DNA from: Ginglymostoma cirratum | Taxonomy: Eukaryota | Length of the DNA: 64,000 nucleotides | Direction of reading: 5' to 3' | Assembly: GCA_024137785.1 (NCBI GenBank) | Contig: JAHRHZ010000084.1 | Coordinates: forward strand, 6,845,573-6,909,572 | Shown: one piece after another, positions 15,773 through 64,000 of the stretch | How positions within the stretch are numbered: position 1 is the stretch's first letter | Layout of the letters: every line of letters begins with the position of its first letter | Translations under genes and position numbers: made by a program | Notes under the pieces: generated by a model | Database searches by the model: none | What the model was told of the DNA's origin: nothing | The model's input: the letters and a program-made list of their open reading frames with translations, nothing else

Positions 15773-15827
15773 ATGTCATTGAGAGCAGCGGTTCTGTTCA
15801 TGGCGCTTCTGGTTATGACTTGGCCAG
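15773..15827 (+). CDS. Locus A exon 1: signal peptide (MSLRAAVLFMALLVMTWP, phase 1)
   Basis: ATG at 15773, 18 mostly hydrophobic codons, then G|GTACTC donor. Phase 1 matches the V exon. Identical copy at 57724. Confidence 0.85.
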
Positions 15828-16041
15828 GTACTCTTAAATGTTACGAAGTGCCCTCTTAGTGTAACTTAGACTGTATTTCATATTCACAGCCACTGTGCGT
15901 TGCAATGTTAGATTCTCTGCTTCTCCAATCCGATGCGCGTAATTGTTCTAAAACGTTTCTTGTATTTTGTTCCTCCGTTGTTTTGTCTATTTTGTAGTCT
16001 TCAGCTATTATTACAATTCTTACTTGTTTTATTTTTAATAG

Positions 16042-16347
16042 TCACTAAAGTAACTTCGAGCAAAGTAGAACAGTTTCCCAAACTCTTGAAGTCGGTCAAA
16101 GGTGACAACGTTTCCATGTTCTGCACATTTCCCATATCTGAAACTGTTCCTGAAGTATTTTGGTGGAGACGCAATGAGGAATCCTTTCTGGAATCCGACA
16201 GCAGAAAGCGATTCCATGTCCAGAAAGGAAGGGGCTCACTTCATATCATCAATATCACTGTTGCAGACTCCGGAATGTATTATTGCAAAATAAAACATCA
16301 GCAAACTCTCATTGGAGCTGGAAGTGGCTCGATGCTGACAGTATGCG
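16042..16347 (+). CDS. Locus A exon 2: V-type Ig domain with germline J-like G strand
   Basis: TTTTAATAG acceptor, G|GTAAGT donor, 306 nt. Motifs MFC, VFWWR, SLHIINITVADSGMYYC and GAGSGSMLTV. Confidence 0.93.
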
Positions 16348-17781
16348 GTAAGTGACACTTCCAGGGGCAGACAACTCTTCAGTTGTTTGGTGTAATTTAT
16401 GTGACGTGAGGTTTTATAATTCGATGAAAATACAATGATGGTGTATTCACTTCACACCTTCATGGGGATCTCTTCCCCGTTGACTTCGCTGTACAACGGT
16501 CTTTGATTTGCTTTCGCCTGTTTTGTGCCTTTTTTCAAGATTAATTCCACTGCTCACTGCGATCATGACTGCACAGTGCCGTTAATGTGATGAGTGCAGA
16601 AACGGTTTATCTTGCGTCAAGATAGTGAAACAGGACAACAAATCAAATCTTGGGGTGAAATTAATTGATGAAATACCATAAAATAATGAACTGCGGAGGC
16701 TAGAAATCGGAAAAAAAAGAAATTGCTGGAGAAACTTAGAATGTCTGGCCGCATCAAGTGTAGAGTCGCCAAGCGTTTTAACTGTACATTTTTCCAATAC
16801 TAGGATGCTCGAAACGCTAACTTTTTTAAAAACAAATGAATAGCAGGATCCAATAAGAGGGAAATCTTTGATCTGGCCCTAAACATTAGATTCTATCCCC
16901 AGTCGTGAAGTTTACAGGACAGTGAAGGTACCCACTTCGTCTGTGGTTCGCCAACTGGACTTTCTGTGATGCATGCACAACAGGGATAGTGAATGAAGGA
17001 CTGTACCAATCATACATAAAGACCTCTGGGATCCTGTGTTTGTAATTTATTATTTCGATGCAGCGTGACTCACGACCGGAGACCAAGATAATACTTTTTT
17101 TTGTCCAAATGGGATTTCTGTAATATCTAAAGCAGATCTGTGGGGAAAATTGAAAAATTCTCTACCTTTGATGGCAATAAAAACTCGCATAAATTTGGAA
17201 ATGAATAAAATATCTCACTCAAACTCAAGCACCATAAACATGCCGAGAAGACATGTTAAGAATATTTGTTATAATAAACAGTAGAACAATACAAACCCAG
17301 GAACATTACTTCCACCTAAGCATTAACTGCGGATCGAGAGGGTGCATGTTTACTTTAGTAATTCGTTAAGGTGGAATTGATATTTCGATGGGGTGTGGGT
17401 AGTTCAGGCAAAGGCGGAAATACGAATCACTTCTAATTCCCCTGTTTACACCAGGGAGAATCTCCTCCAGGGAAAGAAAAAAACATGTCCAACAAACGAA
17501 TGCACTTTCAGATGGACAAATCCCTTAGAATTATTTTAAATCCTCCACTTTACCAAAGGTTTTCCGCCCGGGTTCACCTTCGCTGTGCATTGTTTGAAAA
17601 ACATCCTAACATTATGCCGTGTATTTTTAAAAATAAATGCAAAGACCAAGGTTAAAATACGATAACAAGGAAAACTGTTATCGCATCATGAACAATGTGG
17701 GATGGATGGGGGTGCGGACGCAGTGGAGAGGAGGAAACAAAAGGGGATGTTCGTTAATTAAAAAAAAACTTTCTGTTATAG

Positions 17782-18078
17782 TTCCCCCTACCGACCTGAA
17801 AATCATTCCCGTTGAAGGAGCTTCAGGGAATTACCTGAAATTCGAGTGTAAAACGACTGCTTTTTACCCTGAGGATTCAGGAATCTCCTGGCTAAGAGAT
17901 GGTGTTAAAATTCAGGCTGGAATAGAAACTGTGATAAACAAGACCGTGGATGGCCTTTATGAAGTTACTAGTTCATTGGAAGAAACACTGCCTGCGCAGA
18001 GCAGCGCAGTTTATACCTGCCTGATACCTCACGAATGTCTTAAGGCACCCGCCAGCGTCAGCTACACTTTTAATCGAG
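17782..18078 (+). CDS. Locus A exon 3: C1-set Ig domain
   Basis: TTATAG acceptor, G|GTAAG donor, phase 1-1. C1 signature: ECKTTAFYPEDSGISWLRDG, DGLYEVTSSL, YTCLIPH. Confidence 0.93.
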
Positions 18079-19488
18079 GTAAGATTGAACATGTTCCCAA
18101 AATGGAATTGGGGTCTGTGATGGCGGCGGGGTGGGAATCGGGTAGGAAAGAACTTAAACGTGTACTTTTAAGGCGTGTAAGGGTGACCGGTGTTCATTCG
18201 CAATGCCACAGAAATGGAAACAAAACAAAATATTTTAAGGTCGCTTGCTGACACAGAAGGGTGAATCGGTCTCTGAATGACCTGAAACGGGAGGTTGACG
18301 GGAAAACTGCTCAGACGTTGATAAATCGACAACATTTAATTGCTGAGTGAAATGAAAGTTCATATTAAATAGATCCATTCCGCCTGAGTACCTTTTACAA
18401 GCGGTACATGTATATTGTTTACCCTGTCCAGCAAATCTCCGCCAACAACGTCTTCAGTTGTCTGTATCCTAAACTTGGAAAATTCCGGCCTCTCCCTGTA
18501 CCGCTGTGGTTTTCCTTGTTTAGGACGCTTCTTCATCCTTATTTCTCTCTCTCCTAGGACTACTTTATGTATGGCTGATAACGCCCTGTGAAGTGTCTTA
18601 GAATTATTTTTAACACAGCTAAAGGAGCAGTATAATTGCAAATTGCTGTTGTTACATATACCAAAAGTGTCAGTCGGTTTTGTCCGAGAAGGCTGGAGAA
18701 GGGCGTCATAAAGCATACAAAATCCTTTCAGGGCTTGCCAAGCTAAATAAGGAAAGGGTATTTCTCCTGGATGATTGTCTAGAATCGAAAAAAAAACGTT
18801 TCAAAATAAGGGGCAGGTCATTTAGGACTGAGGTGAAGAGGAATTTCTTCAACCACAAACTTGGGAATTCAGAACCACCCTCCCCTGCCCCGCACCGCTC
18901 CCCTCCCCACACTCCACCGCAATGCCGGAAACACTGGGCCAATCAGGTTATAAAATACTGAGATCGACAGATTTCCAAACGTTAAATGATATGTAAATAT
19001 CGCAAGTAAATAACGCTGAGGAAGTTCAACCATGATATAGTTGAATGGTGGAGCGTGCTCGAAGATCCCAGTGTCTCACTCGTCCCTGTCTCTATGTTCC
19101 TTGGTAACCGAAATTAGGAATTGACAACTTTGCCAGATCTTGCAATTGTTGTTCATCTGTCTGGTTTAAGACAATGAGTAAGTAAGTGCAAATTCCTTTA
19201 CTTACAGCAAACAACCCTCCTATGCAGCGAGGTGGTTCTCGCTGCTTTAAGTCATGAAATGTGTCTTCTCCATAAAATGCATGCTGAGCTGCTGAGTTGA
19301 CGTCCTCTGATGCACTTTACCGCCCTTGTGTAGTTATTCCCATCGAAATTAAAACGCTCCAACTTGGCTAATGGCAGGGTTATGCTGGGAGACATCTTTG
19401 TAATTCGTTATCCTGTACATGATGCTCTGCGCATGTAACTCGTTGTGTTTCACAATTGTTCACTTCCATCAATTGTTGATCCCTGTAG

Positions 19489-19593
19489 GTGAAGATATCA
19501 ATCTTCCGCTGATCGTTGGATGTGTCGGAGGGACATTGGCAATGTTACTATTCATAATATGTTTGATGACACACAAGTTGAAGGCATGGGCTG
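19489..19593 (+). CDS. Locus A exon 4: transmembrane segment (GEDINLPLIVGCVGGTLAMLLFIICLMTHKLKAWA)
   Basis: CCCTGTAG acceptor, G|GTAAG donor, phase 1-1. About 22 hydrophobic residues with no charge, followed by a basic stop-transfer. Confidence 0.88.
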
Positions 19594-19924
19594 GTAAGAA
19601 CCTTTCTTATTTTGCTGGGTACCTTTTATTTCCTTAGATCCAGCTTAAAAGCATGAAGAGCGTGTGATCAATCAAGGGCTGTGACTTCACATTGTGCAGA
19701 TGAGAGCCTAACGCAGATCTGAAATGCAAACATTTCACCTTCTTACCCGAACTATACACTTGACTTTTTCATGACCATATTGCTACAATTGAAATTATTA
19801 TTCAGTGCGGATCTAGTTCCTAAACAGGAAAATTTCTGAATCAGATTTTGACTTTCGGCATTAAAGTGAATGTTTTCGAACTGACGACTAGATACGCACA
19901 TCTACAGATTTTATTTCCGTTGTA

Positions 19925-21285
19925 ATGTTGTGGCGTCAATGGGCCGCCGACCCACATTTTGCACTATCACACGGAGACAAACTGTCCATCATTGGGTGCA
20001 GCGCAATGTGAGCAATGAACAGATGGAGCTGGTGCGTTTCATTGCAAATTTTTCGTCACCCTGCGAGGTAGTATCGTCAGTGCGCCTCCGTCGAAGAGTC
20101 GGTGTTCTGACCCGCTTGTTATTTATATACCTCAGTTTGTTGGGGTGTTTGATACCACTTCCGTTTCTCAGTGGTTTGTACACCGGGTCTATTTCAACGT
20201 TTTTGTTGATGGAGTTCTGGTGAGAATACCAGGCCTTCTGGAATTCCCTAGCTCGTCTCTCTTTGGTTTGTGCGATTATGGATCTGTTTTCCCAGTCGAT
20301 CTCGTGTCCCTCGTTGTCACCGAGTGTAGTGAGAGAAGTGAGAATTGGTCGTGTCTCTTGGTGGCTAGTTGGTGTTCGTGTGTCGGTGTTGTCAGTTTTC
20401 TTCCGGTTTGGCCCATGTCGTGTTACTCACATGGGCCTTGCATGGTATTTTGTATGTTACACAGGTTTTACTGGTTTTGGGCATGGGATCCTTTACATTC
20501 GTCTGTCTCCGTCGTAAGGTGGTTGTTAGTTTGTGGGCTGCTCTGATACTTAGGGGTCTGAGTAGTCTTGTGGACATCTGTGAAATGTCCTTGATGTAAG
20601 GTAGGGTGATTAGTGAGTCAGGTCGTGTTGTGCTCTGTCTCGGAAGTAACGGCGGGTTGTGCTATTTGGATATCTATTCCTTTTGAAGACTCCGTGTAAG
20701 CGCTCTGTTCTGCTTTATGTCGTTCTGGGCTGCTGCAATGTGTTGTCGCTCGTTTAAATAGTGTCCTAATGCAGCTCGTTGGTGGCTTTGGAGTGGCCGC
20801 TAGTGTAATTGAGTATCTGCTCCGTATGTATGGTCTTTCACATACGCTACTCTGGAGTTTCCCGTTGTTTTTGCGTCCTACCATTGTAACCAGGAAGGGT
20901 AGTCGGTTGTTGTCCTCTTTTTCTTCTGTGAATTTTATCCCAGTGAGGAAGTTGTTTATGTGTCGATGGGTTTCTTCTAGTTTTATGCATTTGATAATCT
21001 CGAAGGTGTCATCTACGCTTTGGATCTAACATTTGGGTTGTAGAGTGGGGAGCGCTGTCCATTCTAACTTTTTCACGACCCCTTCTGCAATCATTCCTGA
21101 TATTGGGGATTCCATTGGTGTGCCGTTGATTTGTTTGTATATGCCGTCGTTGAAGGTGAAGTGGGTTATGAGGAACAGGGCTAGTAGTTTCATGATGCTG
21201 TCCTTGTCGATGTTTTTGGCGTCCTAGAGTGCCTGCCTACTTGATTCGTCCGGTAGTGCGGCAATTGTTTCTTTGGCCAGACGAT
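19925..21285 (-). mobile_element. Penelope-like retroelement fragment (RT C-terminus plus GIY-YIG) in intron 4 of locus A
   Basis: Minus frames: YKQINGTPMESPISGMIA, CIRTLFKRATTHCS, TLPYIKDISQMSTRLLRPL, VTYKIPCK. Confidence 0.85.
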
Positions 21286-21435
21286 CTCACTGCAGTTAAT
21301 ACTGCTGAACACCTACGGAAGGTAGGTTTTCGTACTAAGTAAAAAAGTAAATGTTTCTAGCAACGAAAGCATGACATTAGATTTTCTGATACATTGATTC
21401 CGTTATTCACAGTAGATTTCTTTGCTTTCTATTAG

Positions 21436-21479
21436 GCAAAGGGATAAATTCGATGGAAGCAGGTCAGAATGACGAGCTG
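21436..21479 (+). CDS. Locus A exon 5: short cytoplasmic exon (GKGINSMEAGQNDEL)
   Basis: TTTCTATTAG acceptor and GTAAGG donor. 44 nt converts phase 1 to phase 0, as needed to join exons 4 and 6. Confidence 0.72.
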
Positions 21480-22409
21480 GTAAGGCAACATTATTCTTTT
21501 TATTCCTAACAAAAATGGTAGAGGAGGTGGGCTCATGGGAAAGATAGTAATGGATTTTATATTCAGTCGAAATTATTTAGATTTCATAGAACACAGAATT
21601 CTATAGCAAGAGATGCATCGCCTGCGCCTCTGCTGCCTCTATGAGATGAGTCAATTTATCCACTCTCACGTTGTTTAGCTATTTATCTGATTTTTCGTTT
21701 CAATCTAATTTCCCCTTGAAGGTTCCTATCGAATCTCTTTCTGTCACTTTCTGTTGATGGGCAGCTTACTGCAACGGGCTGTAGAAAAAGATTCTTCCTA
21801 GACGACAAGGGACCCTTTCAGCAAATCTCTTGTTATACGCCCTCGAAAACCTTGGCACCTTCAAAAAGTAGTACCTGCAGTGAGTGGTTCAAAAGATCTC
21901 AGGTCTTTCTGCGCTGTATGCTGGCTGCAGTGCGTGTCGGAGGTAGGGGGTGGGTGGGAGCAGATGGGTGCAATAACGGTTGTAGAAATGTTAGAGGAGA
22001 CTTTTGTCAGGAATTGTTGGTCGCCACTTGGGGGATATAACTTTACAGAAGTGTAACGAGAACAGACTAACGCTTCGCTGTCATCTCTTCTATCAGATTT
22101 GGCTAACTATGGAATAGGAAGACTACCTCGCCACAACAAGGTCAAAGAGAGTTAGAGATAAATGACGGAATAATGAATATCTATTATTCATTGGCTAGAT
22201 GTTAAAATGTAGGGGAATACATTAAACGCTCTGCGTTTCATACTTAGCATGTTACTCCGCACCACATTGGCGATATATTAGGCGCAAATCATTGAGAATT
22301 GCCAGAATACAATTGCGACATTGATTGTCTGCTGTCTGTATATTTACCTTCTCAGGTTCAATTCCAATCGGTGATGTTTGGCTAAAAAAAAATCAGATTC
22401 GCTGCTGTT

Positions 22410-22882
22410 ATAGCCATAGAGTCACACAACCCGGAAACAGACCCTTCCGACCAACCAGTCCATGCCGAACGCATTCCCAAAATAAAATAGTCCCACCTGC
22501 CTGCTCCTGGCCCATATCCCTCTAAACATACCCTATTCATGTACTTATCTATTGTCATTGTACCCACATTCACCACTTCCTCAGGAATTTCATTCCACAC
22601 GTAAACGATCCTCTTTGGAAATAAACGGCCTCCATTTTTTGACATTTCTCACCTCTCACCTTAACATGTCCCCGCGGTCTTGATTTCCCCTCTCTAGGGA
22701 GAGGACAACTACAACTAACTCCATCTATTCACATCATTATTTTATAAACTTCTATAAGGTCGCCACTCAAACTTTTTTGCTCCACTGAAAAAAAATCCCA
22801 GCCGAGCCACCTTTTTTTATAACTCAAACCATCCATGCCCAGCAATCTCTGGTAAATCTCTTCTGAACTTTCTCCAGCTTTA
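22410..22882 (-). mobile_element. CR1 LINE 3-prime fragment
   Basis: Minus ORFs RIVYVWNEIPEEVV and LSGDLIEVYKIM. Confidence 0.8.
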
Positions 22883-22908
22883 AGTATTTCATACATTTTT
22901 TTCTCTAG

Positions 22909-23019
22909 CTTAGACAAGGAACAACTGAAGAAAATGTCGTCTATGCTACTGTAAACTTGACAGATAACAAAGGAAAATCCAAACACAGGCACAAAGAAGA
23001 ACACATTGTCTATTTCCAG
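22909..23019 (+). CDS. Locus A exon 6: cytoplasmic ITIM exon (LRQGTTEENVVYATVNLTDNKGKSKHRHKEEHIVYFQ)
   Basis: TTTTTTTCTCTAG acceptor, CAG|GTAAG donor, 111 nt, phase 0-0. Contains ITIM VVYATV. Confidence 0.85.
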
Positions 23020-23919
23020 GTAAGATGGAGAATTGTCAAATATGAAATATCCATGTTACACCCATGTGAGGTCAACACTGCGACAATGGAGTCATTTTTT
23101 AAAAAAAGGCACTGCGCAGTATTAAGGGAAGAACGTCTTTTATTTTTATTTTATGGAGCAGGGCAGGCAGTGGTAATCCAGATGCCAAGGTTAAAAATAT
23201 GAGGACACAACAAGGTCAAGTAGGGCTAGAGATAAATGAGGAAATAATAAATATCTATTATTCATTGGCGATATGTTAACATGTCGTTGAATGCATTAAA
23301 CGCTCTGGATTTCATATTTAGGACATTACTCCGTACCACTGGAGCAGCTAATGAAACTTAATCGGAATCAATAGATTTGGAATGTAAAGCTAGCCTCAAC
23401 GGTGTTGATCATGCGAACTGTCATCAATTGTATCAGAAAAAAAATACAGGGCATTGGTGAGAACACATTCGAAGTATTGTGTACATTACTGGTCACGATT
23501 TTGATGGAAATATATTAATTCATAGAAAGCAGCGCAGGGAAAGTTTACTAGACTAATACCTGGAATGAGTAGATTCTGTTACGTGACCTTACGTTGATAC
23601 GACATGGGTTTGCTAATGGACTTCAGGGAACGAAAACGATCATCCTTACCTGGTCTGCACTACGTGTGGGTCCAGGGCCACAGCAATGTGATTGATTCTC
23701 AACTGCAATCTGGGCAGTTCGGGGTGGGAAATGACTGCTGACCTAACCAGTAATGCTCACATATTATGAATGAATTAACAAAATAGAAGAAATCCGTTTA
23801 GACCATCGAGTCTGCTTCGCCATCCAACGAGATCAAAACGGATCTGACAAGCCTCTATTCCACATTCCTGCTTCTTCCCTGTAACACTTTATTTGTTTGT
23901 TAACTGGAGACACAGAAAG

Positions 23920-25900
23920 CCATAGCGTCATAGAGCCGTACAGCACGGAAACAAACCCTTCGGTCCAACAAGTCCGTGCCAAACATAATCCCGAACTAAA
24001 CTAGTCCCACCTACCTGTTTCTGGCCCATATCCCTCCAAAACTTTCCTGTTCATATATCCATGGAAATGTTTTTTTAAGCGTTGTAATTATACCCGCATC
24101 CATCACTTTACCCAAAAGTAGATTACACACTCAAAGCATCCTCGATGTAATGAACAATGCCGCATGTATTTTTAAGACTCTCTCCTCTCACCTTAAAAGC
24201 TTGCCCCTTATTCTTGAAATTCCCCATCTCAGGGAAAAGACAACTACCATCAACTCTATATATACCTTCCATTATTTCAAAAACTTCTATCAGTTCACCT
24301 CTCAACCTCCTATGCTCCAGTGGAAAAAAAGAAGTCCCAGCTTATCCATTCTTTCCTTACAACGTAAATCTATCAATTTAGGTTTGAGTGTTCTTAAGCT
24401 CTTAACTAAGACAATCTTTTATACGAAATAATTTGACAGATTCACTACCCTCTCAAAGAAAATACATCCTCATCAGTTTTAAATTTGCAACCACTTATTC
24501 TGAGATTATGCCCTCTGAATCTGGACTCTCTCACATGGGATGCAATATCTCCACGTCTGTTCTGTCAAGTTCCCTACGAATGTTATATGTTTCAATAAGG
24601 TTACCTCTCCTTCTTCAATGACACCAGGACCAGCCTACTCAACCTCTCCTCACAAGAGAGTTTCATAAGAGATGAACCTTGTCTGGACTACCTCTAATGT
24701 CAGTATGTCTTTTCTGAGATCAGGGGAAGGAAACAGCTCACAATATTCAGCCATAGCCTAACTAGTACCTCGTATACTTTTGGCCTATTTTTATACCCTA
24801 TTCCCTTTGCAATGAGACCCACATTTCATTTGCCTTCTGAAACGTACTCAAATTGTGTGCCATCTCTTTTTTTGTGATTCATGCATGAGTAATCCCGAAT
24901 CCCTCGGCTCCATGGCTTTATGACGTCCTGCATTTAAATAACATTCAGCTCCTCTATTCCTCCTTCCAAAATGCATAATCTCATATTCCACATTATACTC
25001 CATCTGCTAACTCTTTGCCGATTCATGTGTCCTCCCTATATCCCTCTAAAACTTTTTGTGTCATCCTTATAACTCTGTGTCCCACCTACTTTAATGTTAT
25101 CCATGAACTGGCTGTTGTGCATGCACTTTCTGCCTCCAAGTCTTTCATATATATGTGTGGAAAAAATGTGGCCCTAGCACTAATCCTATTGCCAATTCAC
25201 AAATTCCAGATTTATATTCTGAAAATGCCCTACCCCCATCCCAACTCTCAGTGTTTTATTCATTAACTAGTGCTCTAACCATATTAATGTACTACCTCCG
25301 AGGCCATAGGTTTTTACAAGTAACCTAATGTGTGGTACCTTAGCAAATGCCTTATGAAAATCCAAATATATTACATCCACTACTTCTCCTTTATCTGTCC
25401 TCATATTTACCTCCTTACAGAATTCTAATAAAATTATAAGGCATGATTACCCCTACGTGAAGCCATGCTAACTCTCCTACTTCTAAATACTTTATAACAG
25501 ACTGAAGAATTCCCTCCAAAATGGATGTTCAGCGAACAGGCCTGTATTTGCATATTACTGTCTCCTTCCCTTTTAAATAAAGACGTTGGTTTGGCAAATT
25601 TCTAACCCTCTGGGAGTCTTTTATCTCAAAATCTAAGCACTTCTGGAAGATTACTACTGGTGCATCCAGTACTATGGTTACTTTCTTTGATATCCGAGGA
25701 TGCATCCCATCAGGTACAGCGTACTTATTAGACTTATGCCTCATCAGCTCCCACCCCCCACACACATGTTTTCTCCAGTGATAGTTATATTTATTTCATC
25801 TCCTCCTTTTGTCCTTGAATATTTAATAATTAGGTAAGCTATTACCGTCTTCTACTCTGAAAACTAATTCAAAGTATTCATTCAACACCTCGACTGTTTC
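23920..25900 (-). mobile_element. Nested or adjacent CR1 LINE fragments in intron 6
   Basis: MRGELIEVFEIMEGIYRVD and PDGMHPRISKK, both CR1 RT-region motifs. Confidence 0.75.
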
Positions 25901-27379
25901 CTGATTCCCCATTATTCTTTGCCTCCGCCTCATTTTTGGCTTCTGTCTTCAGTTTTGTAGGCTATAAGCCGTAGGATAGGTATCGTCTTGAGTTTAGAAG
26001 ATTCGGAAGTTACTTAGTCGAAACATATACAATCCTGGCAGACTTGACCAGGTGGCTGTTGAAAGGATCGTTCCTTTTTTTTTGAACAATCTAAAACTAG
26101 AGCTTACTGTTTAAAAATGAGGGACTGCCCATTTAATACAGAGTGAGGATTATTTGTTTCTCTCCTGGGTTTATGAGTCTTTGGAACGTCCTTCCTTAAA
26201 AGGCAGTAGATGCAGAAAATTTAAATATTTTTAAGGCAAGGGTAGATAGATTCTTGATTACCACGCAGATGAAAGACTAGCGGGGTTGGTGAGGGGCTGT
26301 GGTGCAGAAATGTGGAGTTGAGTGTACATCAAATCAACCATGATCTCATTGAATGATGGTGCGAGCTTGAAGGGCCAAGTCGTCTGCACGTATTACTTGT
26401 TTGTATGATGCAGGCAACTTGCTGCTATGTTATTACCTGGCCTGCCCGACATATGATCTGGACTCCCAGCCACGTGATTGATATTTAACAACTATAGCAA
26501 ATGGCTTAGCAATGTACTCAGCTCAAGAACATTAGCGATGGGCAACAAATACTGATATTCTCACTGACATCTTAATTAGATGACAAAAAAAGGCAAAATA
26601 AAGGCACTGTTCGGAAATCAACATCTTTCCTACTGATTTGTCGGAAACATAAATCGCGGCAGATGTCAAACGGGCAGCGGGCATTTACAGACAAAGTACC
26701 ACACTGAGAACAAGTTGCCTTATTTCTGCCTTGTTGACTCCAGCACCAGGAAAAATAAAACAAACCCAGGCAGGCAGAGGAGAGTACTGTCTATGATCAC
26801 GTACAGCTTTACCACTTACTGTAATACTTTCAATGTCACTTGTACTGCACTAAACTATAGGAATTGAAAGATCCTTAATTTAACCTGCGTTCGATCATCT
26901 CAACCAAAGGTCACTGTATTCGCCCTGGGTTCCAGGGATCAGAAGATCAGCTGCAGTGGGGTAAAAAGACAGTTGAAAACTTTGACTTGAGGCCTCTCCA
27001 TGGGATAAGCAGATCAAATTGGTTGTCATGTTTCAGAATTTGGGGCTTGAAAGAGATGTTTTGCAATATCAGTATTCCAAACACATTTAACATGCCGGCA
27101 TTTTATTGCTTTACTATTTTAATTGAAGTGATTGCCTGTTCCCCTAAACGGGCAATGTTGATATTCTAATCCATTTTGAGAGAAGTGCAGACCAGAATAC
27201 CAGGAAGTTTTACGGCAAGGCTACATAGTGGAGAGAAATCAGAGATAGAAAACAATACAATCTGAAATTGGTAACTGACGACGGGAAATTTCACTAAAGC
27301 CTTTAAAATAAAATCTTGACTGCCTTTGGAAATGAATCGATGAAAGACTAATGTGTGGTGCAAAATTTTACTTTCACAG

Positions 27380-27520
27380 ACCAAGCAAGAAAGCGAAAAT
27401 AATAAACTGACTTACGCTGCTCTGCAAATAGCTGATTCCAAGAAAGCATCAAAACCCAAACAGCAAGACAGTTCCGCATTATATGCAGAAGTAAAGGTGA
27501 CAAAGAAAGCGAGAATCTGA
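27380..27520 (+). CDS. Locus A exon 7: terminal ITIM exon (TKQESENNKLTYAALQIADSKKASKPKQQDSSALYAEVKVTKKARI*)
   Basis: CTTTCACAG acceptor, phase 0. ITIM LTYAAL and ITIM-like ALYAEV; TGA at 27518-27520. Confidence 0.85.
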   Translation, partial: TKQESENNKLTYAALQIADSKKASKPKQQDSSALYAEVKVTKKARI

Positions 27521-40945: not shown

Positions 40946-41869
40946 GTAAGATAGAACACATTTTCAGTGGGGCACACACTCGAACCTGATATACAGAGGA
41001 TAGTGGGTGTGTGGATTATGTTATTCTCAGTGAAACTATGGGAAATCAATAAAAACTGTGAAGGTAAACGATAGTTGAAGTAGGAAAAATATTTTCTGGA
41101 ATAAATCGGAAACGTTTATGTTGACCAAAAGTTGAAAGGTTTTGCCAGATCAAACATGCCTATTATGCTTACAAAGCATCTGCTTTAACAAAATTTTTAC
41201 CAGATTCTCTGTAAAACGTTAAGTGACAGCTTTCAAGCACATTCCCTCCCTCACTCATATAAGTCAACATGACTGATCTGTTTCTCTTGCATACATGCCT
41301 CCCGCAAATATCTTCTATTCCCTGGAATTATGACTTTACTGGTTTCCTGTTATCTTTGAGTTACTATAAATTGCTCAGATACGAAGACATCTTCCTAGCT
41401 CGATTATAGTAGCAGTTAAGGTTATAGGTCCTTTACTTCAATTAATGGGATTGCAAGAATCGTTTAATCGTTAGCACTGCGAGGGCAAACTGATAGAATG
41501 GCAGAAAGTACTTGACAAAAGTCGATAAGTTGTTTTAGGAAGAGCGAATCAGCTTTGGGGAACATCTACCTGGGTGAAAATCGAGAAACATCATTCTGAT
41601 ATATTTAGCAACCAGACTACAGCGTAATATACAGAAAGCTAGATTATTGGTAATTTTGATCGTAAAGCAACAGGTTTGGGAGACACAATTGTCTAGTTGT
41701 ATTTTATGATCGGGGGATTTAGAGGAATACGCATGCTTTTATTACCCATGGAAGAAAATATGTTGGATGTGACTCTCACACTGCCCATTTGCCTCCATTG
41801 CTAATGATACCAGCTAAAGATTTCACAGGTTGTAGTTCATCAGAAAAAAAACACGAGTAGAAACTGAAG

Positions 41870-42755
41870 AGAAGCCGAAAGAACTGTGGATGCTGTAAAT
41901 CAGGAACAACAACAAAATTGCCGGAAAAGCTCAGCAGGTCTGGCAGCATCTGAGAAGGAAAAAGTAGAGTGAACGTTTCGGGTCCATTGACTCTTCCTGA
42001 GAACTGATGGTGGCTTGAAAACGTCAGTTTACATACAGAAAAAAGGGGAGGGAATGGGGTAGGGAGTAAACGATAGGACAGAGCCTAAAGTGAGAGAACA
42101 GCAGTTGGACAGACTAAGAATTTGTAACGATCAGGCTGGGAGGGTGATTGGTTGTTAATGGAGACTATTGGTGACTAATAGCAGGTAGTGTGTAATAGCA
42201 GGCTATGTGGTAACAAGGCCTGGTGTGTCTGGTAGGGGGCTGGGACATGGGAGAGTTTAGGCCCTAAAATTATTGAACTCGATATTGAGTCTGGAGTCTG
42301 CAGGGTCCCCCAGGGGAAAATGAGGTGTCGTTCTTCTAGCTTGAGTTGACCTTCGCTTGAACACTGCAGCAAGCCAGAGACAGATGTTGGCCAGGGAACG
42401 GGGTGGTGTGTTAATGTGGCAGGCAATGCGTAGTGCAGCGTCTTTTTTGCGAGAAGAATGTAGATGTTCTGCGAAGCAATCACCTAGTCTACCTTTCATT
42501 TCCCCAATGTACAGGAGACCACATTGTGAGCAGCGAATGCAGTAGACTAGATTCTGGGAAGTGCAAGTGAATTGTTGCTTTACCTAGAAGGCATGTTTGA
42601 CCCCTTAGATACTGGGGAGGGAGGAGGTAATTGGGCAGGTGTTGCACCTTCGCCGGTTACAAGGGAAGGTGCCATAGGGCTGGTGGGGAGGGGGGTGGTT
42701 TTAGGGGTGAATGAAGTGTAGACTAGGGTGTCCCGGAGGGAACTGTCCCTGCGGT
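41870..42755 (-). mobile_element. Penelope-like 3-prime fragment (GIY-YIG plus terminal repeat)
   Basis: MKGRLGDCFAEHLHS and LEERHLIFPWGTLQ. Confidence 0.8.
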
Positions 42756-45700
42756 CCCTGTACAGAAGCCGACAGCCTCATAAAATCGCGCTATCACCAA
42801 AAGTAGACGATATTGGAAGTGGATTACATCATAGCAGGTGCAGACATGGTGCTTATTTTGCAGAGCATATTGTTCGTCTATTATGTAGATACTTTATCAG
42901 CAATGTAAATTCGAGCTTCTTGAAATCAGTATGTTAAGTGACCTATTTCACTTCTACGAACGAATCCTCGTCGTATCCAATAGATAATCCTTGCACACAT
43001 CTATTTTATAAACTTGTTTTAATTCTGCACTGTAGAGAACAGTTTCCATGTAATTGCAATTGCGCGATTTCCTGTGAGTTTCATCATAATTCTTGGAATG
43101 ACGGGCATTATTATGTATCATGTAAAAAACAGTTTCAACAGAAGCTGAGTGAACACTTTTCTAACTTGTAAAATTTAACCTAATTTTCCAACCAACCCGT
43201 TCAGAGATGCTATTTCACACCCTGTGGCACACGTGGGACTTGAATCCCGCCTTCGCGGTCCAGGTGTAGGGACAGCACTACTTTTAACTCAGTAAGCCAC
43301 ATTCAAAGCAGATTCACAGGTAGCATAAATAGGCTGCGATGGGGAAATGTGCTTCTGTAAAAAGCACAGTTTTAGAAATTGACATATATGATTACTTGCT
43401 TGCTACCAAATGCTTTCAGCCTGAAACGTTGACATTCCTGCTCCTCGGAACCTGTGCTTTTCCAGCCTCACAGCTTTCGAGTCTGGCTTCCAGCATCTGC
43501 AGTCCTTATTTTCTCCAAGTTAAAGAAGGTTTAGGTATGAATCTTTATATTTAGCTTGGATGATAAGACACAGGATGAAACGTAAACTGTTTCTCTTTGC
43601 AGAGGTGGTAAGTATATCCAAAGTGTTTGTTTTCATTCCAGATTTCATTAATTTCAACACGAAGTAAACTTTATCACAAGATAAGTAATAAAAGAATGGA
43701 GGTCAATTGTGTGCCTTGACTTAATTGGGACTTCTTTCAATAGAAACGTCTCTTTTCAAGTTCTCATTTGATCAAAGGGACTTGTACACAAAATTTATAC
43801 AATGTCAGCTGAACGTACTGCTATTCAATCGAGTGTCTAAAATCTTTAATAGAGGTTTTTCTGCTCTATAGAATGAATAGAAAATTGGGCTAAAGGGCTC
43901 TATTCGCAGTACTGACCGTTTATGTACCAGGAATATACCTCAACCAAACTTCTTTATTTATTTCACTGTTGTTTGCCATGGCCAATAATCCATTTCATCT
44001 AATAAGTACTATTTGGACTTCCGTAACCAGAAAATTCATTGTATCAATGCAAATTCTTCCTTATTCTTTAAAAAGTTTGTATGAATGGTTGAATAATCCA
44101 TCACATATGTGCTATTTTCCCAGTGTTCTTTGACATTATTCCTTCAATTGCTACGAAAATTGCAAAGATAGTCAACTGGAAGAAGCACTTAATGTGATAC
44201 ACTTCTAACTCATTCTCAAGAGATAGATGTTGCTGAGTGGGCTGGAATCGTCCATCACTAATTAACCTGGGGGAGGAGACTGCAAAGCGATTTTCTGAAA
44301 AGCAGTAGTCTTTGCTGTTTGAGGATACCCAATGTACTATTATGAATGGAGTTCTAGGATTCTGAGCTGTTTTCGTGATGCTAGCTTCATAGGGTTCTCC
44401 TCATATTCCTTTAAGGCATGGATACTAGGTGTGGTGCTGTCACGTTTTATTTCTTGTGAACTGCTGGGGTTTGGTGGTAGAGTAAAGACTGGCATGTATC
44501 AAACTGTTGACCTCCAATACAACTTAGGTAGAGGTCTCTAGATATTGTTCACAACAGAACAAAATCCTAATTGCTTATGCATGACAGCTTTGCACAATGT
44601 TATCCTGCACTCTCTGACAGCTCGGGTCAGTTTTAACTTTTTCTATGCAGCCGAATTGATGACATCAGGGAAAGATCAGCATAAAATACCACCCTGCTTT
44701 GGAAATGTACGTGGCTTTTCCTTCACTATCGAATGGTCAAATTCCTATTACTCTTTTCCAACTAGCAGTATGGGCATACCTAAACCAACTGGGGTGCGGT
44801 GGTTTAATAGGCGTCACGCTACTCAAGAATAATTGGAGTTCATTAGTAAATGCCAGTGAAGCCCAGGTCGCCTGAACGATTTCTTTTTTAAAAAGTGGAA
44901 AATATCATATGGCATTTCTAACATGCATGGGTCGCTGCTATCCCATCGATTCCTGAAAATATGGCTGTATTCTAAGTGAAAATGTAATTACTTTTCGGCA
45001 TAACATTATATAGAATGCAGAAAATGCTGATGTTGATGTTACAATTTGGATTTTTATACATATCTACAGGAAAAAGAAATATGTTTTGTCTTGTGAAGGG
45101 GTTAAATGTCAGGGGATAGAGATTTTCGGTGATTGTTAGGCGACTAAAAGAGACACGAGGAAAGATTTTTTTCCCTCAGAGGATGGGACGGGTCTAGAAT
45201 TCGCATTCAAAATTTACTGCTTGAGGCCGAAAAACTCGATTCATTTGAAAGGAACGTGGACTTGCAACTGAAACACTACAATGTTTCATTTTGTTGCTTG
45301 CTGCTGGGAAGGGCGATGAAAATGAGGGACTTTTTTTGATCACTGCAGACACGATCGTCTGATTGGCCAGTTCTGAAGAAGAATCGTACTGAACTGGTAA
45401 AGTAAATTGTGTATCTCTCTCCAAAGTCTCTGCTGTGCTTCTTCATCGCTATATTATATTTGTTACACAGACACAATAATCTTGACTCTAAGAGCATTCT
45501 AAAAATGACAGTTGTGACAAATATAAACTTAGGAAGCTAATTTTAGATTGGAAGTTATAGTGTATTTATTTAAGATCAAGACTTCAGTCCGAGTTCCGCT
45601 AAATTTATTGACAATTTAATAATTATTGTCATATCAATGGAATGTTATTATTGTTGAAAGTTCCTCCACTTTAATGTTACCTTGACTATGAGCCAGTTGA

Positions 45701-54900: not shown

Positions 54901-57723
54901 TCTATCCTGCCAAAATATTTTTCAATTGTAGTCACTAACATAAGCTGTCAACATAAGCTGTTGACAACTTTTGCACGATGGAGACAGCCAAATAATGCAG
55001 ATAATTTCCTGTTCTTTTTTTTTAGCGGTATTGGCGAAGGGATAATCATGAGCTCAGAAAGCGAGAAAAACCTTCTCCTATTCCTTCAAGTGATGGGTGA
55101 GATTTTTTTAACCATGATGTTCTTGCAGGATCAATATTCTGTACAAAGCAGAAGCTGTTTTACATTACTCAACATTTAATCTTGAGACCTTTAATAGAGA
55201 AAATACTATTCAACTCTAGAAATCAAAACAAAAATCAAATTATTCGATTCTGAACTCGATAATTCTAGGAAACAAAACTAATGTGAATGTGCTAATATTT
55301 GTAAGCACGATTCCATAACTCCCAGTAGCTATCATTTAATTTCTGCTCGTGGCATTCGCACTGACCTTTCTGTTCTCGGTGTGTCGCCGGTGTTCCAGTA
55401 ATGCTCATTGATAGCTGCAGGAACAGGACCTTTTTGTCCTATTCGGGACTTTAAATTTTGACGGACGAAACACTGCACGCAGTAGCGAAATGCCACTTGA
55501 TCACATATCAAGTGCGAGATTCGAGATTCCAGATCTGTTATGAGTTCATTGAAAACCTGTGAGTGTTAAATAAAGAACTCTTATTCCTGTGTGAAGAACC
55601 ACCAAATCTCTAATCATTAACGCCAATGTGGCTTATTAAAAAAAAGGCGACAGATACTGAAATATCGTGAATATATTTCAAATATTTAATATTTGATGTA
55701 ATGTCTCCATATTTGGGATTTTCATTCCACAAATTAACATTTACCTTTGTATGATACGTTATTGATACCTGACCTGATATTAAGCTCTTTGTTAGTAATA
55801 ACCCCGTGTTGGAAATTGTCGTGCGGCTTTGTTCTTCACCTTGGAAATACCTGCAGCAATTGAGGGAAGCATCACAAATAATTATGACATACATTTGCGC
55901 CTGTGTGTGGCCATTCATTTCTGCTCAAGTGGTACCTATCTTTAACTTCTTTCGAAGTTCTTTATTGTAAGTCAGCAAATGGATAATAGTGTCATGCAAA
56001 TATGTCCAAAACTGGCCAATCACTGGGATATCATGTGGGGAAACAATTCAAGTGAGCAAACATTCTTCAACACCCAAATTGCCAGCCGAAATTCGTTGCT
56101 TTAGAACAAGCCGAAACTATGAGGAATTTCACATGTCCAAGGCAATGTTAAAGAACTCACAGTTATGGTTAGTGTGTATCATGAACCAATTATTCGTATA
56201 ACAAAACTCAGTTCCGAATTAGTTAAAATATTAGATCACCTTGCGTTTCCGAGCCCCTGTCACCCACAGGGGTTCTTGTGTTGCAGTGATAGTTTCCTCA
56301 CTTCTGATCCAACAGAGCCAAGTCACACAGGCTGTAGGAACGAATCACAACGTCTCTAAATCGGTTGATTAGAAAATAACAGGACCTGACACCTTTCCTA
56401 CCCCACATTAATATGAACAACGAGGATTCGCCCAAGAGTAATCGGGAATGGACAATAATCCTGCCTAGCTCCTAATGTTCACAATATTAGTTTTAGAAAG
56501 CAAACGGAGAGAATGATTCACGTTTTAACGATTGGCAAGAGAAAGAGAGATGTACTGAAAGTAAAGTTTTAGGGTGTGTTTACAATGTTTTGAAGATGGG
56601 AGACAAGTGGTTCATAAAACATAAGGCAAGTAAGTTATATTAAACTAGTCCCAGCCTTGAGACGTATGCTCAACACTGACGGATGCCAAGGTCTTCAAGC
56701 GGATGTTAGAAGATATTTATTAGGATGATATTAGAGTTGAGAAACTTCAGTGATGTGGAGGAAGTGGTGTTCTTGATCGAGAAGTTTAGCGGTATTCAAG
56801 ATTGTGAAAAGTTTTCGTGGCATAAACTAGCATAAATGTTTTGAAGGCATAAACTAATTAGGATAAAACATATTCTATCAGATAACCCAGTAACTAGAGG
56901 ACAGATTGTTAAAAGGCCCAGAGGTTTTTGAATTTCACAGTCGCAATGAGTCCCAGCCTAACTGTACCTGCTGAGGAACAAATGTTCGTGCAGATCCGTA
57001 GATGACGGTTACCACCGGGATTCCTGAATGACGTTCGCCTACTAATTCAGTGCAAATAATTCTATTCAGCAAACTGCCACTTGCAACAAGCCACAAGTCT
57101 GAAAAACTTGGTCTTACTTTCAGTAAAGTTCCCTTGCTCCGTGAACGCTGCACAAGCTTGTTTCTCCTCGCCGTTCCATCCCCAGGTATCACCAAACGCA
57201 TTGCTGTGATTATTTGTTGTGGTTTGAGTGGACTAATAGCTCCAAAAGAAAACGATCTGGAAATAAGTCTAATTGTCCTCATCAGCACTGAAATAGAAAA
57301 AAAAATGAATATAATTATCATTCCAATGGTTCCTGCTGGAAACTTGGGTGATCGGAGGATGTTAAAGATAATGGTGGCAAGAATCTCAGAAGTCCCAGGA
57401 TAAGTAGTTGCTTACGTAAAGAGGAATCGTTTAGATGAAGGAGCTGGAGTACTGCGGCGTGTCCCTGTGGCGACTGAAAACAAAACAAAACTGTCGATCT
57501 TCTGATGGAAACGTTTGAGCAGTAAATTAGGAGGGGACCACCGACCTAACAAACTCCCACAGGGTAGTACAACCACATCCAATACGCTGCATTAGTCATG
57601 TGATAAGTTATGTCATAATCTCAAGTTTAACATATTTAGCAATGAAACTCATTTCGCCCAAAACCAGTCAGAATTCTGTCCTCGTTTACAGCAAGTAGAC
57701 CACTCTCTTTAATCGTTTGCAAT

Positions 57724-57778
57724 ATGTCATTGAGAGCAGCGGTTCTGTTCATGGCGCTTCTGGTTATGACTTGGCCAG
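57724..57778 (+). CDS. Locus C exon 1: signal peptide
   Basis: Identical to 15773-15827, including the donor site. Confidence 0.82.
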
Positions 57779-57992
57779 GTACTCTTAAATGTTACGAAGT
57801 GCCCTCTTAGTGTAACTTAGACTGTATTTCATATTCACAGCCACTGTGCGTTGCAATGTTAGATGCTCTGTTTCTCCAATCCGATGCGCGTAATTGTTCT
57901 AAAACGTTTCTTGTATTTAATTCCTCCGTTGTTTTGTCTACTTTGTAGTCTTCAGCTATCATTACAATTCTTACTTGTTTTATTTTTAATAG

Positions 57993-58298
57993 TCACTAAA
58001 GTAACTTCGAGCAAAGTAGAACAGTTTCCCAAACTCTTGAAGTCGGTCAAAGGTGACAACGTTTCCATGTTCTGCACATTTCCCATATCTGAAACTGTTC
58101 CTGAAGCATTTTGGTGGAGACGCAATGCGGAATCTTTTCTGGAATCCGACAGTAGAAGGCGATTACATGTCCAGAAAGGAAGGGGCTCACTTCATATCAT
58201 CAATATCACTGTTGCAGACTCCGGAATGTATTATTGCAAAATAAAACATCAGCAAACTCTCATTGGAGTTGGAAGTGGCTCGATGCTGACAGTGTGCG
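57993..58298 (+). CDS. Locus C exon 2: V-J-type Ig domain
   Basis: Open frame with intact splice sites; 8 nt differences from A exon 2 by manual count. Confidence 0.9.
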
Positions 58299-58710
58299 GT
58301 AAGTGACACTTCCAGGGGCAGACAACTCTTCAGTTGTTTGGTGTAATTTATGTGACGTGAGGTTTTATAATTCGACGAAAATTCAACGATAGTGTATTCA
58401 CTTCACACCTTCATGGGTATCTCTTCCCCGTTGACTTCGCTGTACAACGGTCTTTGATTTGCTTTCGCCCGTTTTGCGCCTTTTTTCAAGATTAATTCCA
58501 CCGCTCATTTCGATCATGACTGCACAGCGCAGTTAATGTGATGAGTGCAGAAACGGTTTATATTGCGTCAAGGTAGTGAAACAGGACAACAAATCAAATT
58601 TTGGTTTGAATTAATTGATGAAATACCATAAAATAAAGAACTGCAAATGCTAGAAAACTGAAAGAAAAGAAATTGCTGGAGAAACTCAGAATGTCTGGCC
58701 GCATCTGTGT

Positions 58711-60950: not shown

Positions 60951-61247
60951 TTCCCCCAACCAAACTGAAAATCGTTCCCATTGAAGGAATTTCAGGGAAT
61001 TACCCGAAATTCGAATGCAAAACAACTGCCTTTTATCCGGAAGATTCAGGAATCTCCTGGCTAAGAGATGGTGTCAAAATTCAGGCTGGAATAGAAACTG
61101 TGAAAAACAAGACCGCGGATGGGCTTTATGAGGTTACTAGTTCGTTGGAAGAAACACAGCCTGTGCAGAGTGGTGTAGTTTATACCTGCCTGGTACCTCA
61201 CGAATGTCTTAAGGCGCCCGCCAGTGTCAGCTATACCTTTAATCGAG
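60951..61247 (+). CDS. Locus C exon 3: C1-set Ig domain (downstream exons not found in window)
   Basis: TTCTAG acceptor, G|GTAAG donor. Open frame VPPTKLKIVPIEGISGNYPKFECKTTAFYPED to YTCLVPHECLKAPASVSYTFNR. Confidence 0.88.
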
Positions 61248-62229
61248 GTAAGATTGAAAATATTCTGAATAGGGAGTTGGGGTGTGCATTGGACTAGCTC
61301 TAACTCGACGACATCATATAAGTGTGACCAGTGTTTATTCTCAATGCCACAGAAATGGAAACAAAACAAAGTATTTCAAGATAATTTGCAGGTGCAGGAG
61401 AGTGAATAGATCCCTGAAATGACTGGAAGCGGGCAGTTGACGTGAAAGCTGCTCAAAAGCTGAAAACTCGACAGTTTTTAATTGCTAAATTAAATGAAAG
61501 TTCAGCTAAAATAGATCTGTTTCACCTGAATAACTTAGGCAAGCTGTACATGTCTATTGTTTATCCTGTTCAGCTAATCTCCGCCAACAACGTCTTCAGT
61601 TGCCAATACCCCAAACTTCGAAAATTCCGCCTCTCTGTCTCCCGCTGTGTCTTTCCTTTTTTAAAGACGCTTCTTCATCCTTGTTTCTCTCTGTCCTAAG
61701 ACTACTTTATGTCTGGCTGACAATGCTGTGTAAAGTGTCTTAGAATTATTTTAATATGGCCAAAAGTGCAGCATAATTGAAAGGTATTGTTATTATATAT
61801 ACTCAAAGTTGCAGTCGGCATGTCCGAGAAGGCTCGAGAAGGGTGTCATGAAGCACACAAAATCCTTTCAGGTCATGGTAGGGTAAATAAGGAAAGGATA
61901 TTTCGACTGGCTGATGGTCTAGGATCAGAAAACAGTTTCAAAATAAGAGGCAGGTCATTTAGGACTGAGGTGAAGAGGAATTTTTTCAAGCAGAAACATG
62001 AGAATTCTACAGCACTTTGCCCTGCCCCATCCTCCCCACCCTAACCCCCACTCTCCCACAATGCCGGAAAAGCTGGTTTAAGTGGTGAATAGTTAAGGTG
62101 GCGAATTCGGTTCAAAGTAAGTGTGCTTCTTTGGCCCAGGTGAATAAAGCGTTTTGACAGTTGTTAAATATGTATCCTTACGGTAATTAGTGAGTATCCC
62201 ATCAAATTCCTGCATTCTATCTTGTAGAT

Positions 62230-63070
62230 ACTAGATAGATTTTGAGGAATTAGGACCCTGCAGAATCCTAATCTCTGACTTGGACAAGTGTGTGGCTGGC
62301 CCAGTCAGTTTCTTGGTTAATTTGATCCTCAGCATGTTGAATGTCGGCAGTCTAGCAATGAGATGCAAATGAATGTTAAAGGAGATAGTTAGATTTCCGT
62401 CTTGTTGGAAATGGTCATTTCCTGGCACTTAAGTGGTGCGAATGTTATTTGTCACTTATCAGCCGCAAATTGAATTATACTTTAATATTCCTTTATTTGG
62501 TCATGAACTATTTCATTTTCTGAGTAATTGCAAATGGTACTGAAAATTCTACAATCATCAGTGAACATGCACACTGTTGACTTTATGTTGGAGGCAAGGT
62601 CACGAAGAAACAAGCAAGATGGTCAGAACAGACCTTTGCCCTGTTGTTACACTGTAACATCCAGTACTGAAATAATTGATATCCAAAACATCCTTTGTTC
62701 TAGATATAACTCCAAACAGTGGCAAATTCTAATCACCTGCATCACCACCAACTCTTCAACAGCAAATCCCACCCTGTTCCCATCGATTAGATTTTCTCTA
62801 GGGCTTCTTGATGCCATACTCGGTCAAATGCAACTTCAATGTTAAGGGTTGTTAGTTTGATGCTTGACCAAATGCTATCGTGCTGTCAGAAGTTCGCACG
62901 CCGTCTGTGGGTCAAAATCCTGGATTTCTGTTCCTAACAGTATTGTGGGGCGACCTACATAACACGGGCTGCAGCAGTTCAAGAAGACAGCTCGCCACCA
63001 ACTTCTCAAGGGCAACTGGGGATGGGCAATTGGCACTGGACAGTCATCGATACCTACATCCCACATGTCA
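62230..63070. mobile_element. L2/CR1-clade fragments (minus 62230-62850, plus tail 62880-63070)
   Basis: Homologous to 10200-10820; plus-strand tail GTTCAAGAAGACAGCTCGCCACCAACTTCTCAAGGGCAAC. Confidence 0.65.
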
Positions 63071-64000
63071 GCAGAAAAAGACCAGTGGAACTCAAGTCAA
63101 ACCTCGGTGAGTAGGGTACTATTGTGCAAGTTTCACCTGATAGCACTGTCCGTGAAAACTGATCTTCCTGCAGAAACCAGAGTTCGCGTCGTGGGACGTT
63201 AACTGGTCATATTTCCTGTGAGTTGTTTTTGTGTAGACAGGGCTTACCTAGCTCCAGCCCCACACTGTGTTATCACTTTTCACATCACTGTGTAGACGCC
63301 AGTGTGGTAGCCTAACAGAAAAGGCTTGGCCTGCATCGTTCAGGAAACAAGTCTACAGCGTTGCTGCAAGAATATCGTCGGGGCAAAGCCCTTTCAGTAG
63401 CAATCATGGCTCACACCTGAAACAACTTACATACTCACAGCCTGTTGATATGAAGAGGTCTCTCTGCTCCAGTGATGAAAATCATAGGCTCGCTATACTT
63501 TTTGAAGAAAAAATCGTTGTGATAATAGCTGATTCATATATAATGGACAAAGCTAGCATACGACTGGGGTTCATTGAGAGCAAATATTTGACGGGAACAA
63601 TCTTGACTACTAAACTTCTGCAATGATGTCGCTCCTTCAGATCAAGTTGCAGCCAATTGGAATAGGATCTGACTGATTGCGCTATTACATATGCCATAAG
63701 AACCGTGAACTCACATTCGTGAACTTTACAAATGCACAGTTGGGAGTGCAGTTTCACTCAATAACATCCAGTGCTGTGCTGCGAGCTCATTCACACGTCA
63801 TGTTGTTTATATCTCCTTATGCGCCACAATGTTCACTCATTTCCTGAGGATAGAACTGCGAAGGCTAACTGAAAGTATTACTCACATTTTAATGGGATGT
63901 GGGGGTTGTTGGCTGGAGGACATGTTGGTTTGTTGAAGTAGCAGACAGTTGGAAGCTCAGGGGTCATATTTGCAGACAAAACTTAGGTGTTCTGTAAAAC

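Follow-up and report, generated by a model that had tools for sequence, protein, structure and literature searches.

Locus C of a Ginglymostoma cirratum V-C1 gene cluster joins an A-lineage ectodomain to a class II 3' module

Locus C is a mosaic gene, in which leader, V and C1 exons of the lineage of its neighbour, locus A, are followed from about position 62,080 onwards by the 3' module of a second class of genes in the same cluster (class II), and we hold this structure with high confidence. Counted with the structure are the mosaic itself, its open exons and destroyed ITIMs, the conversion tract with A, a contig of C type spliced from V to C1, and a zeta-family adaptor exon elsewhere in the genome. 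The window, i.e. the whole 64,000-nt stretch analysed (G000:C84:6,845,573-6,909,572), belongs to a 4.36-Gb genome and was examined together with 600 kb downstream, 664 kb in all (20,140 N included); numbers above 64,000 continue the window numbering, and gene letters beyond C are our own. Feature coordinates are collected in Table 1.

Table 1. Positions of the features of loci A and C, in window numbering
Feature	Position	Strand	Remarks
Locus A	15773..27520	+	open 352-aa model, predicted ITIM-bearing partner
A leader	15,773-15,827	+	
A V exon	16,042-16,347	+	
A C1 exon	17,782-18,078	+	
A TM exon	19,489-19,593	+	
A exon 5	21,436-21,479	+	
A exon 6	22,909-23,019	+	
A last coding exon	27,380-27,520	+	
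A/C conversion tract (likely)	56800..58600	+	promoter, leader, V; 100-nt bins 93-100% identical, flanks 56-91%
C leader exon	57,724-57,778	+	identical to A's; open, AG/GT ends
C V exon	57,993-58,298	+	V-set, unsplit, J-like end; open, AG/GT ends
C C1-set exon	60,951-61,247	+	89% like A's; open, AG/GT ends
Junction	62074..62083	+	left A/D/E-like, right like class II G, J, L, I; ~3 nt overlap
C class II 3' module, intronic start	62084..64000	+	68-72% like G, J, L, I
Putative G-E-stop/AATAAA site	62140..62148	+	weak, unconserved
C TM exon	66,588-66,692 (L001:2588-2692)	+	105 nt, AG/GT, open, phase 1-1, Arg in LLISRW
C exon 5 homologue	68,135-68,178 (L001:4135-4178)	+	44 nt, AG/GT, open
C last exon, coding part	81,925-81,969 (L002:7925-7969)	+	14 residues, no Tyr; ITIM-like motifs destroyed

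The junction and the 3' module

A first-pass annotation of the window had placed the breakdown of C-to-A homology near 62070 and had noted that no copy of the transmembrane (TM) exon follows C1 of C between 61,248 and 64,000, A's own TM exon lying 1.4 kb past C1. These observations were borne out: homology ends at 62,076 by measurement, no TM exon copy was found in that interval, and the distance in A is 1,411 nt (C1 end at 18,078, TM start at 19,489). To the left of 62,076 the introns of C are ~75-85% like those of A, D and E; to the right of the junction, collinearity with class II genes continues to beyond 84,000, insertions apart, and ~3.2 kb of G is absent from C at the junction. A contig from a second organism (X3 record 19) crosses the junction over 604 nt with 37 other letters and no gap, and the loss of homology is therefore real and not an assembly slip. 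The junction is also spanned by a 151-nt record of sequence run X1, which may be the assembly's own sample. In G, J and L the switch from the class I intron comes only 13-35 nt upstream of the class I TM acceptor. Two origins would fit the junction in C: a G-like gene may have undergone a deletion and later had its 5' part replaced, or an independent recombination may have taken place.

Trees of individual exons (10-11 rows each, without the B, I and L copies, which are broken or incomplete, and with tested groups named after the first trees had been seen) placed the two halves of C in different clades. Grouping of A with C was supported in the V tree (100/99) and in the C1 tree (98/98), and a class II clade was rejected in both (p-AU 1e-6 and 1e-80, respectively). 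C grouped with F, G, J and M in the TM tree (90/93, not starred) and in the last-exon tree (89/86, not starred), and an A+C clade was rejected with p-AU values of 1.5e-5 and 1.9e-67.

The suggestion that C has a different 3' end, with a charged TM segment past the window, holds at genome level: 5.3 kb after C1, at 2.6 kb beyond the end of the window, there is an Arg-bearing TM exon, and the ITIM exon has lost its motifs. An ITAM, suggested in the same place, did not materialise, as neither an ITAM nor an ITIM match was found in the modelled 37-aa tail. The TM exons of C and A are of the same length (105 nt) and 68% identical, with Ser-Arg-Trp in C in place of Val-Gly-Cys. In the last exon of C the orthologous acceptor is lost, an AG is gained 4 nt downstream, and the frame is shifted, leaving neither ITIM-like motif; its AATAAA stands at 82,633. 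No homologue of exon 6 was found in the downstream module of C, and an apparent exon 6 match in class II proved to be a stretch of N. The six exons of C form one open frame with a predicted product of 283 aa and a 37-residue tail that lacks Tyr. A C-specific, decayed LTR-retroelement-like insertion of 6.7 kb occupies ~74,500-81,200 (L002) in the last intron; its direct repeats (75,101-75,487 and 80,562-80,953) are 71.5% alike, and its integrase- and RNase H-like pieces were judged by eye.

Fourteen related TM exons of two classes were found in the 664 kb. Eight carry a basic residue at the position of A's Gly (seven Arg, one Lys) and make up class II (C, F, G, I, J, L1, L2 and M), with a cluster span given as 0.66 Mb; five are A-like, and the remaining one, at locus N, is related to class II yet uncharged. 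Class I genes (A, D, E, H and K) have their uncharged TM exon 1.2-1.6 kb downstream of C1, with exons 5 and 6 and an ITIM exon next in line. In all seven class II last exons that were aligned, the first ITIM-like motif has a gap at its final position, which A, H and N lack; a stop stands at that gap in six of the seven. Open models of 282-283 aa were obtained from three class II genes (C, G and M). In J the frame closes where the TM exon ends, and the leader donor is missing; F is interrupted by stops and without C1, and V is absent from I and L.

Loci A and C are 42 kb apart in the same orientation within this cluster. The tail of A contains three Tyr motifs (VVYATV, LTYAAL and ALYAEV), and A is predicted to be the inhibitory ('off-switch') receptor of the pair, with its ITIM calls resting on the ITIM consensus. 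Among the copies seen, only A has all three motifs intact, and the class I copies at 256,000-552,000 in the continued numbering are mostly damaged: D has lost its TM acceptor and has a shortened exon 6, in E the C1 exon contains a stop and acceptor and donor sites are missing, the last exon of K is interrupted by stops, and H is open with His replacing the Tyr of one motif.

Locus B (window positions 37,388-43,150) is a broken paralogue with stops in V and C1. At ~43,037 it carries a third, Arg-bearing TM type that matches the TM segments of Scyliorhinus and Heptranchias proteins (P0003, P0005, P0010 and P0011), which gives the family two different Arg-bearing TM modules. This third type was considered as the 3' end of C and discarded, its sole match being locus B and none lying downstream of C. 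The interval between C and D also contains more distantly related V-C1 genes, several of them on the minus strand.

Gene conversion and transcripts

The leader, V and C1 exons of C had been described as intact, and all three are indeed open; Pfam matches C's V and C1 exons to V-set and C1-set domains. Only 8 of 306 nt differ between the V exons of C and A (97% identity), and five of these differences alter a residue, which makes A and C convenient for paired tests of ligands and signalling. From the identity profile, the ~1.8-kb tract around V is likely to be a recent gene conversion between A and C. M and N display a second V-centred identity peak (96-98%), likely marking a second conversion: the V exons of M (597,111-597,416, L054) and N (628,942-629,247, L057) are 97% identical, with flanks at ~69-94%. 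No V-limited peak of this kind was found in the G/H and J/K pairs. M is open with an Arg-bearing TM exon. The TM exon of N is uncharged; neither exon 5 nor exon 6 was found at this locus, and its last exon, shifted by 2 nt, retains two Tyr motifs out of frame, which makes N at most a candidate inhibitory gene.

None of the three sequence runs used is on record as RNA, and the tissue of X1 is likewise not on record; long pieces that stop at exon ends suggest that X1 is RNA. Two X1 contigs span V and C1. One, of 1,372 nt and depth 10.9, has a single other letter on C1 of C and is of C type; the other, of 755 nt and depth 24.6, has 32 other letters on the same exon and is of A type. At two diagnostic V positions the depth is 35.5, which equals the sum of both contigs, with 24.6 carrying A's letter. 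Based on these depths and on the C1 and V letters, C is probably transcribed and spliced from V to C1. The absence of C expression had been named beforehand as an outcome that would overturn the reading of C as a partner with its own 3' end, and the C-type contig speaks against such absence to the extent that X1, whose kind is not on record, is RNA.

Past C1 both contigs continue unbranched, the C-type contig for ~1,000 nt and the A-type contig for ~380 nt (if the orientation of the second record is read correctly). Because they continue without merging, the transcripts of A and C are suggested to differ in their 3' ends. The mean depth of X1 over the bin with the first 30 nt of C's TM exon was 0.03, compared with ~1.0 expected if the C-type contig were there; skipping of the TM exon would account for this, but the uncovered part is uninformative and was weighed neither way. 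Among the 15 joints listed (1,227 more, with repeats dominant, lie outside the listing), none runs from C1 to the TM exon or to 62,140.

Proposed function and its alternatives

In the reading that we favour, recombination would have grafted a class II 3' module onto an A-lineage ectodomain to give C, gene conversion would keep the V exon of C matched to that of A, and C1 would be spliced to the Arg TM exon, exon 5 and the last exon, yielding an ITIM-less receptor of 283 aa. The Arg of its TM segment could then pair with a CD3-zeta-type adaptor for activation, and the purpose of C might be to answer a ligand or pathogen that engages the inhibitory A. The splicing from C1 to the TM exon and beyond, the module graft, the V-matching conversion, adaptor binding and purpose are the parts of this scheme that we infer. 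We regard activation by C through its Arg and a CD3-zeta-type adaptor as evenly poised between right and wrong.

A candidate adaptor is available. One PF11628 match, a zeta/FcR-gamma family TM exon with the acidic residue present (L070:1501-1605, G000:C32), was obtained among 60 candidates scored; it scores 39-44 bits against most CD3 zeta chains and 34-37 bits against FcR-gamma, and is thus closer to CD3 zeta. FcR-gamma is reported to be absent from cartilaginous fish (PMC4016189). A search for DAP10 gave no match, and none in the controls either, and is uninformative. Several observations count against activation: no read or contig among those placed joins C1 to the TM exon; the Arg, fifth residue of the best 21-residue hydrophobic window, sits early in the helix next to a Trp and may lie at the membrane surface; there is no NxxR motif, and tail and TM segment are in separate exons; the last-exon acceptor is lost and the TM acceptor score is low (2.5, with 2.0 for A's); and five of the eight class II copies are broken or incomplete. 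If exon 5 were skipped, the tail would contain SGYNKL, which fits the ITIM consensus and likewise counts against activation.

Relaxed TM codons are a further point against. The TM exon of C differs from those of M, G and J by 9-11 non-synonymous and 1-2 synonymous changes, giving dN/dS values of 1.7-3.2 on small counts, compared with 0.4-0.6 among G, J and M themselves; on these small counts the codons of C's TM segment give no sign of purifying selection. A Ser has been gained mid-helix. The segment of C has no match in Pfam or PDB, and no annotated protein with this TM type was seen among the relatives returned (17 of 75, 3 of 42 and 3 of 183 candidates); relative P0009 has an Arg one position later.

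With the same exons, C could instead be a membrane-bound, non-signalling decoy resembling SIRP-gamma, which would compete with A for ligand and hold its Arg at the outer surface. The place of the Arg beside Trp near the helix start, the missing NxxR, the TM codons free of signs of constraint, the reported absence of FcR-gamma and the Tyr-less tail would all suit such a molecule. We nevertheless consider it unlikely, although it is the strongest alternative, as a basic residue is found at this place in eight of eight class II TM exons, including one with an Arg-to-Lys change, and travels with the ITIM-killing deletion, and as the genome contains a zeta-family adaptor exon.

Next in our estimate, and also unlikely, is that C is mainly soluble. 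The symmetric TM exon could be skipped and C1 joined in frame to exon 5, which would give a secreted decoy of 248 aa with an A-like V domain. The weak TM acceptor, the long pyrimidine tract before exon 5 and the many residue changes in C's TM segment are consistent with skipping, as are three NCBI models of relatives that lack a TM exon (P0013, P0001 and P0007; P0012 has one). These models are automatic, and TM exons are often missed by gene prediction (PMC12227049). Against a soluble product, the TM exon is open and its two splice sites are present; aligned with class II copies it has 81-91 matches in 99-105 nt, and the less conserved flank upstream of it has 39-65 in 82-93 nt. Its acceptor is the top one of 391 in the intron, in a scan that is partly circular since the training set included paralogous TM acceptors.

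That C is a decaying gene, transcribed from a converted A-type promoter and devoid of a working 3' end, appears improbable. The lost last-exon acceptor, the 6.7-kb retroelement in the last intron, the relaxed TM codons and the many broken neighbours would fit decay; all six exons, however, remain in one open frame, a C-type spliced contig exists, and C1 has stayed open while the flanking introns have diverged by ~20% from A.

A secreted decoy had also been proposed to arise from a short exon at 62,140, with an in-phase Gly-Glu-stop overlapping a polyadenylation-type AATAAA. The letters are as described (acceptor ending at 62,139, GT GAA TAA at 62,140-62,147, AATAAA at 62,143), and the strict pattern is uncommon, being reproduced in 15 of 1000 shuffles and found five times in ~263 kb; a loose version recurred in 119 of 1000 shuffles, and the pattern was defined after being seen. 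The proposal itself received no support. The acceptor comes 13th among the 177 AGs of the region, and each of the 25 training acceptors has a higher score; at the paralogous sites of G, J, L and I the AG is kept, and the stop or AATAAA in none of the four; and the surrounding 341-nt stretch is related to dispersed repeats, its 3' half accounting for most of the 35 matches found beyond the cluster, two of which cover the site. With a complete 3' module downstream as well, an end of C at this stop is very improbable, and the site is probably a chance occurrence and not an exon.

Least probable of all, and refuted at genome level, is that C is another inhibitory gene, with A-like TM and ITIM exons merely pushed away by transposable elements. 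The intron is indeed repeat-rich, and the search downstream for A's exons 4-7 did recover homologues of the TM exon, exon 5 and the last exon. Those of the TM and last exons, however, have only 68-75% identity to A and fall with class II in the trees; the ITIMs are destroyed, and for exon 6 no homologue turned up. A further A-like TM exon is reached only ~200 kb on, past other genes (with N gaps of 400, 100 and 400 between, after C's last exon).

Our favoured reading of C as an activating partner of A can be extended to the cluster. The unsplit VJ-C1 genes of sharks may form a paired-receptor system: a single activating 3' cassette (an Arg TM exon with an ITIM-killing frameshift) would have been grafted repeatedly onto different ectodomain lineages, namely to C beside A, to G and J beside H and K, and to M beside N, with V exons matched by conversion. 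Signalling would pass through CD3 zeta in animals reported to lack FcR-gamma, and the KIR-like turnover of activators would have been invented independently in the oldest lineage that has adaptive immunity. This extension is possible, and we offer it tentatively.

Comparison with known receptor systems

The pairing of activating with inhibitory receptors is a textbook principle, known from KIR, SIRP and CEACAM. Paired receptors have similar ectodomains, with ITIMs in one member and, in the other, a short tail plus a TM Arg or Lys that engages an ITAM adaptor (PMC3533184). The ectodomains of A and C are alike (nucleotide identity of 97% for V and 89% for C1), the A model has predicted cytoplasmic ITIMs (VVYATV and LTYAAL, plus the third Tyr motif), the genomic model of C combines the 37-aa tail with a TM Arg, and the genes are clustered, judging by the 14 TM exons in 664 kb.

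According to PMC2213150, activating KIR were derived from inhibitory ones and spread by recombination, with signalling domains that cluster and ectodomains that scatter. The shark genes resemble KIR and Ly49 in the charged TM segment coupled with ITIM loss, in a signalling module that forms one clade with scattered ectodomains, and in the short life of activating copies described there for KIR and Ly49 (PMC2213150). They differ in having a V-C1 ectodomain (C2 or lectin domains in KIR and Ly49) and an Arg near the TM start, in coming from a shark, and in a ligand and adaptor that are only predicted here. As in CEACAM of mammals and Xenopus, a V-type ligand-binding exon has been matched by recent conversion and then altered by non-synonymous change (PMC5112662). 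Unlike CEACAM activators, which have an ITAM-like motif of their own, C has none, and its tract also takes in promoter and leader. The CEACAM paper ties conversion to opposite orientation (PMC5112662), whereas A and C share one orientation. If C activates, cartilaginous fish would join the animals in which activating receptors are born from inhibitory ones through cassette swaps and conversion of V exons, as KIR, Ly49 and CEACAM exemplify. The principle itself is not new; the family concerned has VJ-C1 domains resembling those of antigen receptors and would probably use another adaptor.

The SIRP ectodomain is of the V-C1-C1 type, with two C1 domains, and the TM residue of the DAP12 type is Lys. 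Unlike SIRP, the shark genes have one V and one C1 exon each, and C has Arg, not Lys. Shared features are an unsplit V with a J-like end and a C1-set domain, an ITIM tail, and clustered ITIM-less members; within SIRP, alpha is inhibitory, beta activates through DAP12 and gamma is non-signalling (PMC3533184). A family profile built from 12 of 17 relatives, run against PDB, placed UrIg2 first (E 6e-27) and SIRP-alpha sixth (E 4.7e-20), behind UrIg2, titin and antibody chains. C is not assigned to SIRP.

Another parallel is the NxxR (TM1) module of FcR-gamma-coupled LILRA, PIR-A, NKp46 and Xenopus XFL, in which the motif lies at the TM N-terminus (PMC2413239). C shares with this module an Arg near the N-terminal TM end and a short tail. 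Asn precedes the Arg by six residues in C and M and is missing in G and J. The TM exon of C ends in a GT donor and is followed by two further exons, in contrast to Xenopus XFL, where TM and tail occupy one exon. Because the TM exon of C derives from the family's own uncharged TM exon, any likeness to the NxxR module is convergent.

UrIg and UrIg2 of elasmobranchs likewise have an unsplit VJ exon followed by C1 (PMC12227049 and PMC10751288). The former has three C domains and the latter nine or more, i.e. VJ followed by three or more C1 (PMC12227049), as opposed to one C1, ITIM or Arg modules and a large cluster here. No mention of SIRP was found in the main text of PMC10751288, PMC12227049 and PMC3964593. 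No description of the shark family in print was found by title or abstract; supplements and subscription papers may hold one.

The nearest named protein relatives are shark proteins, with mixed automatic NCBI names: SIRP-alpha-like, NCR3LG1-like (B7-H6; 4 of 17) and tapasin-related. B7-H6 is absent from the 60 best PDB matches of the family profile. Among 150 candidates scored, 76 were C1-like matches, most of them on C85 and C84, indicating a V-C1 family far larger than its part within the 664 kb.
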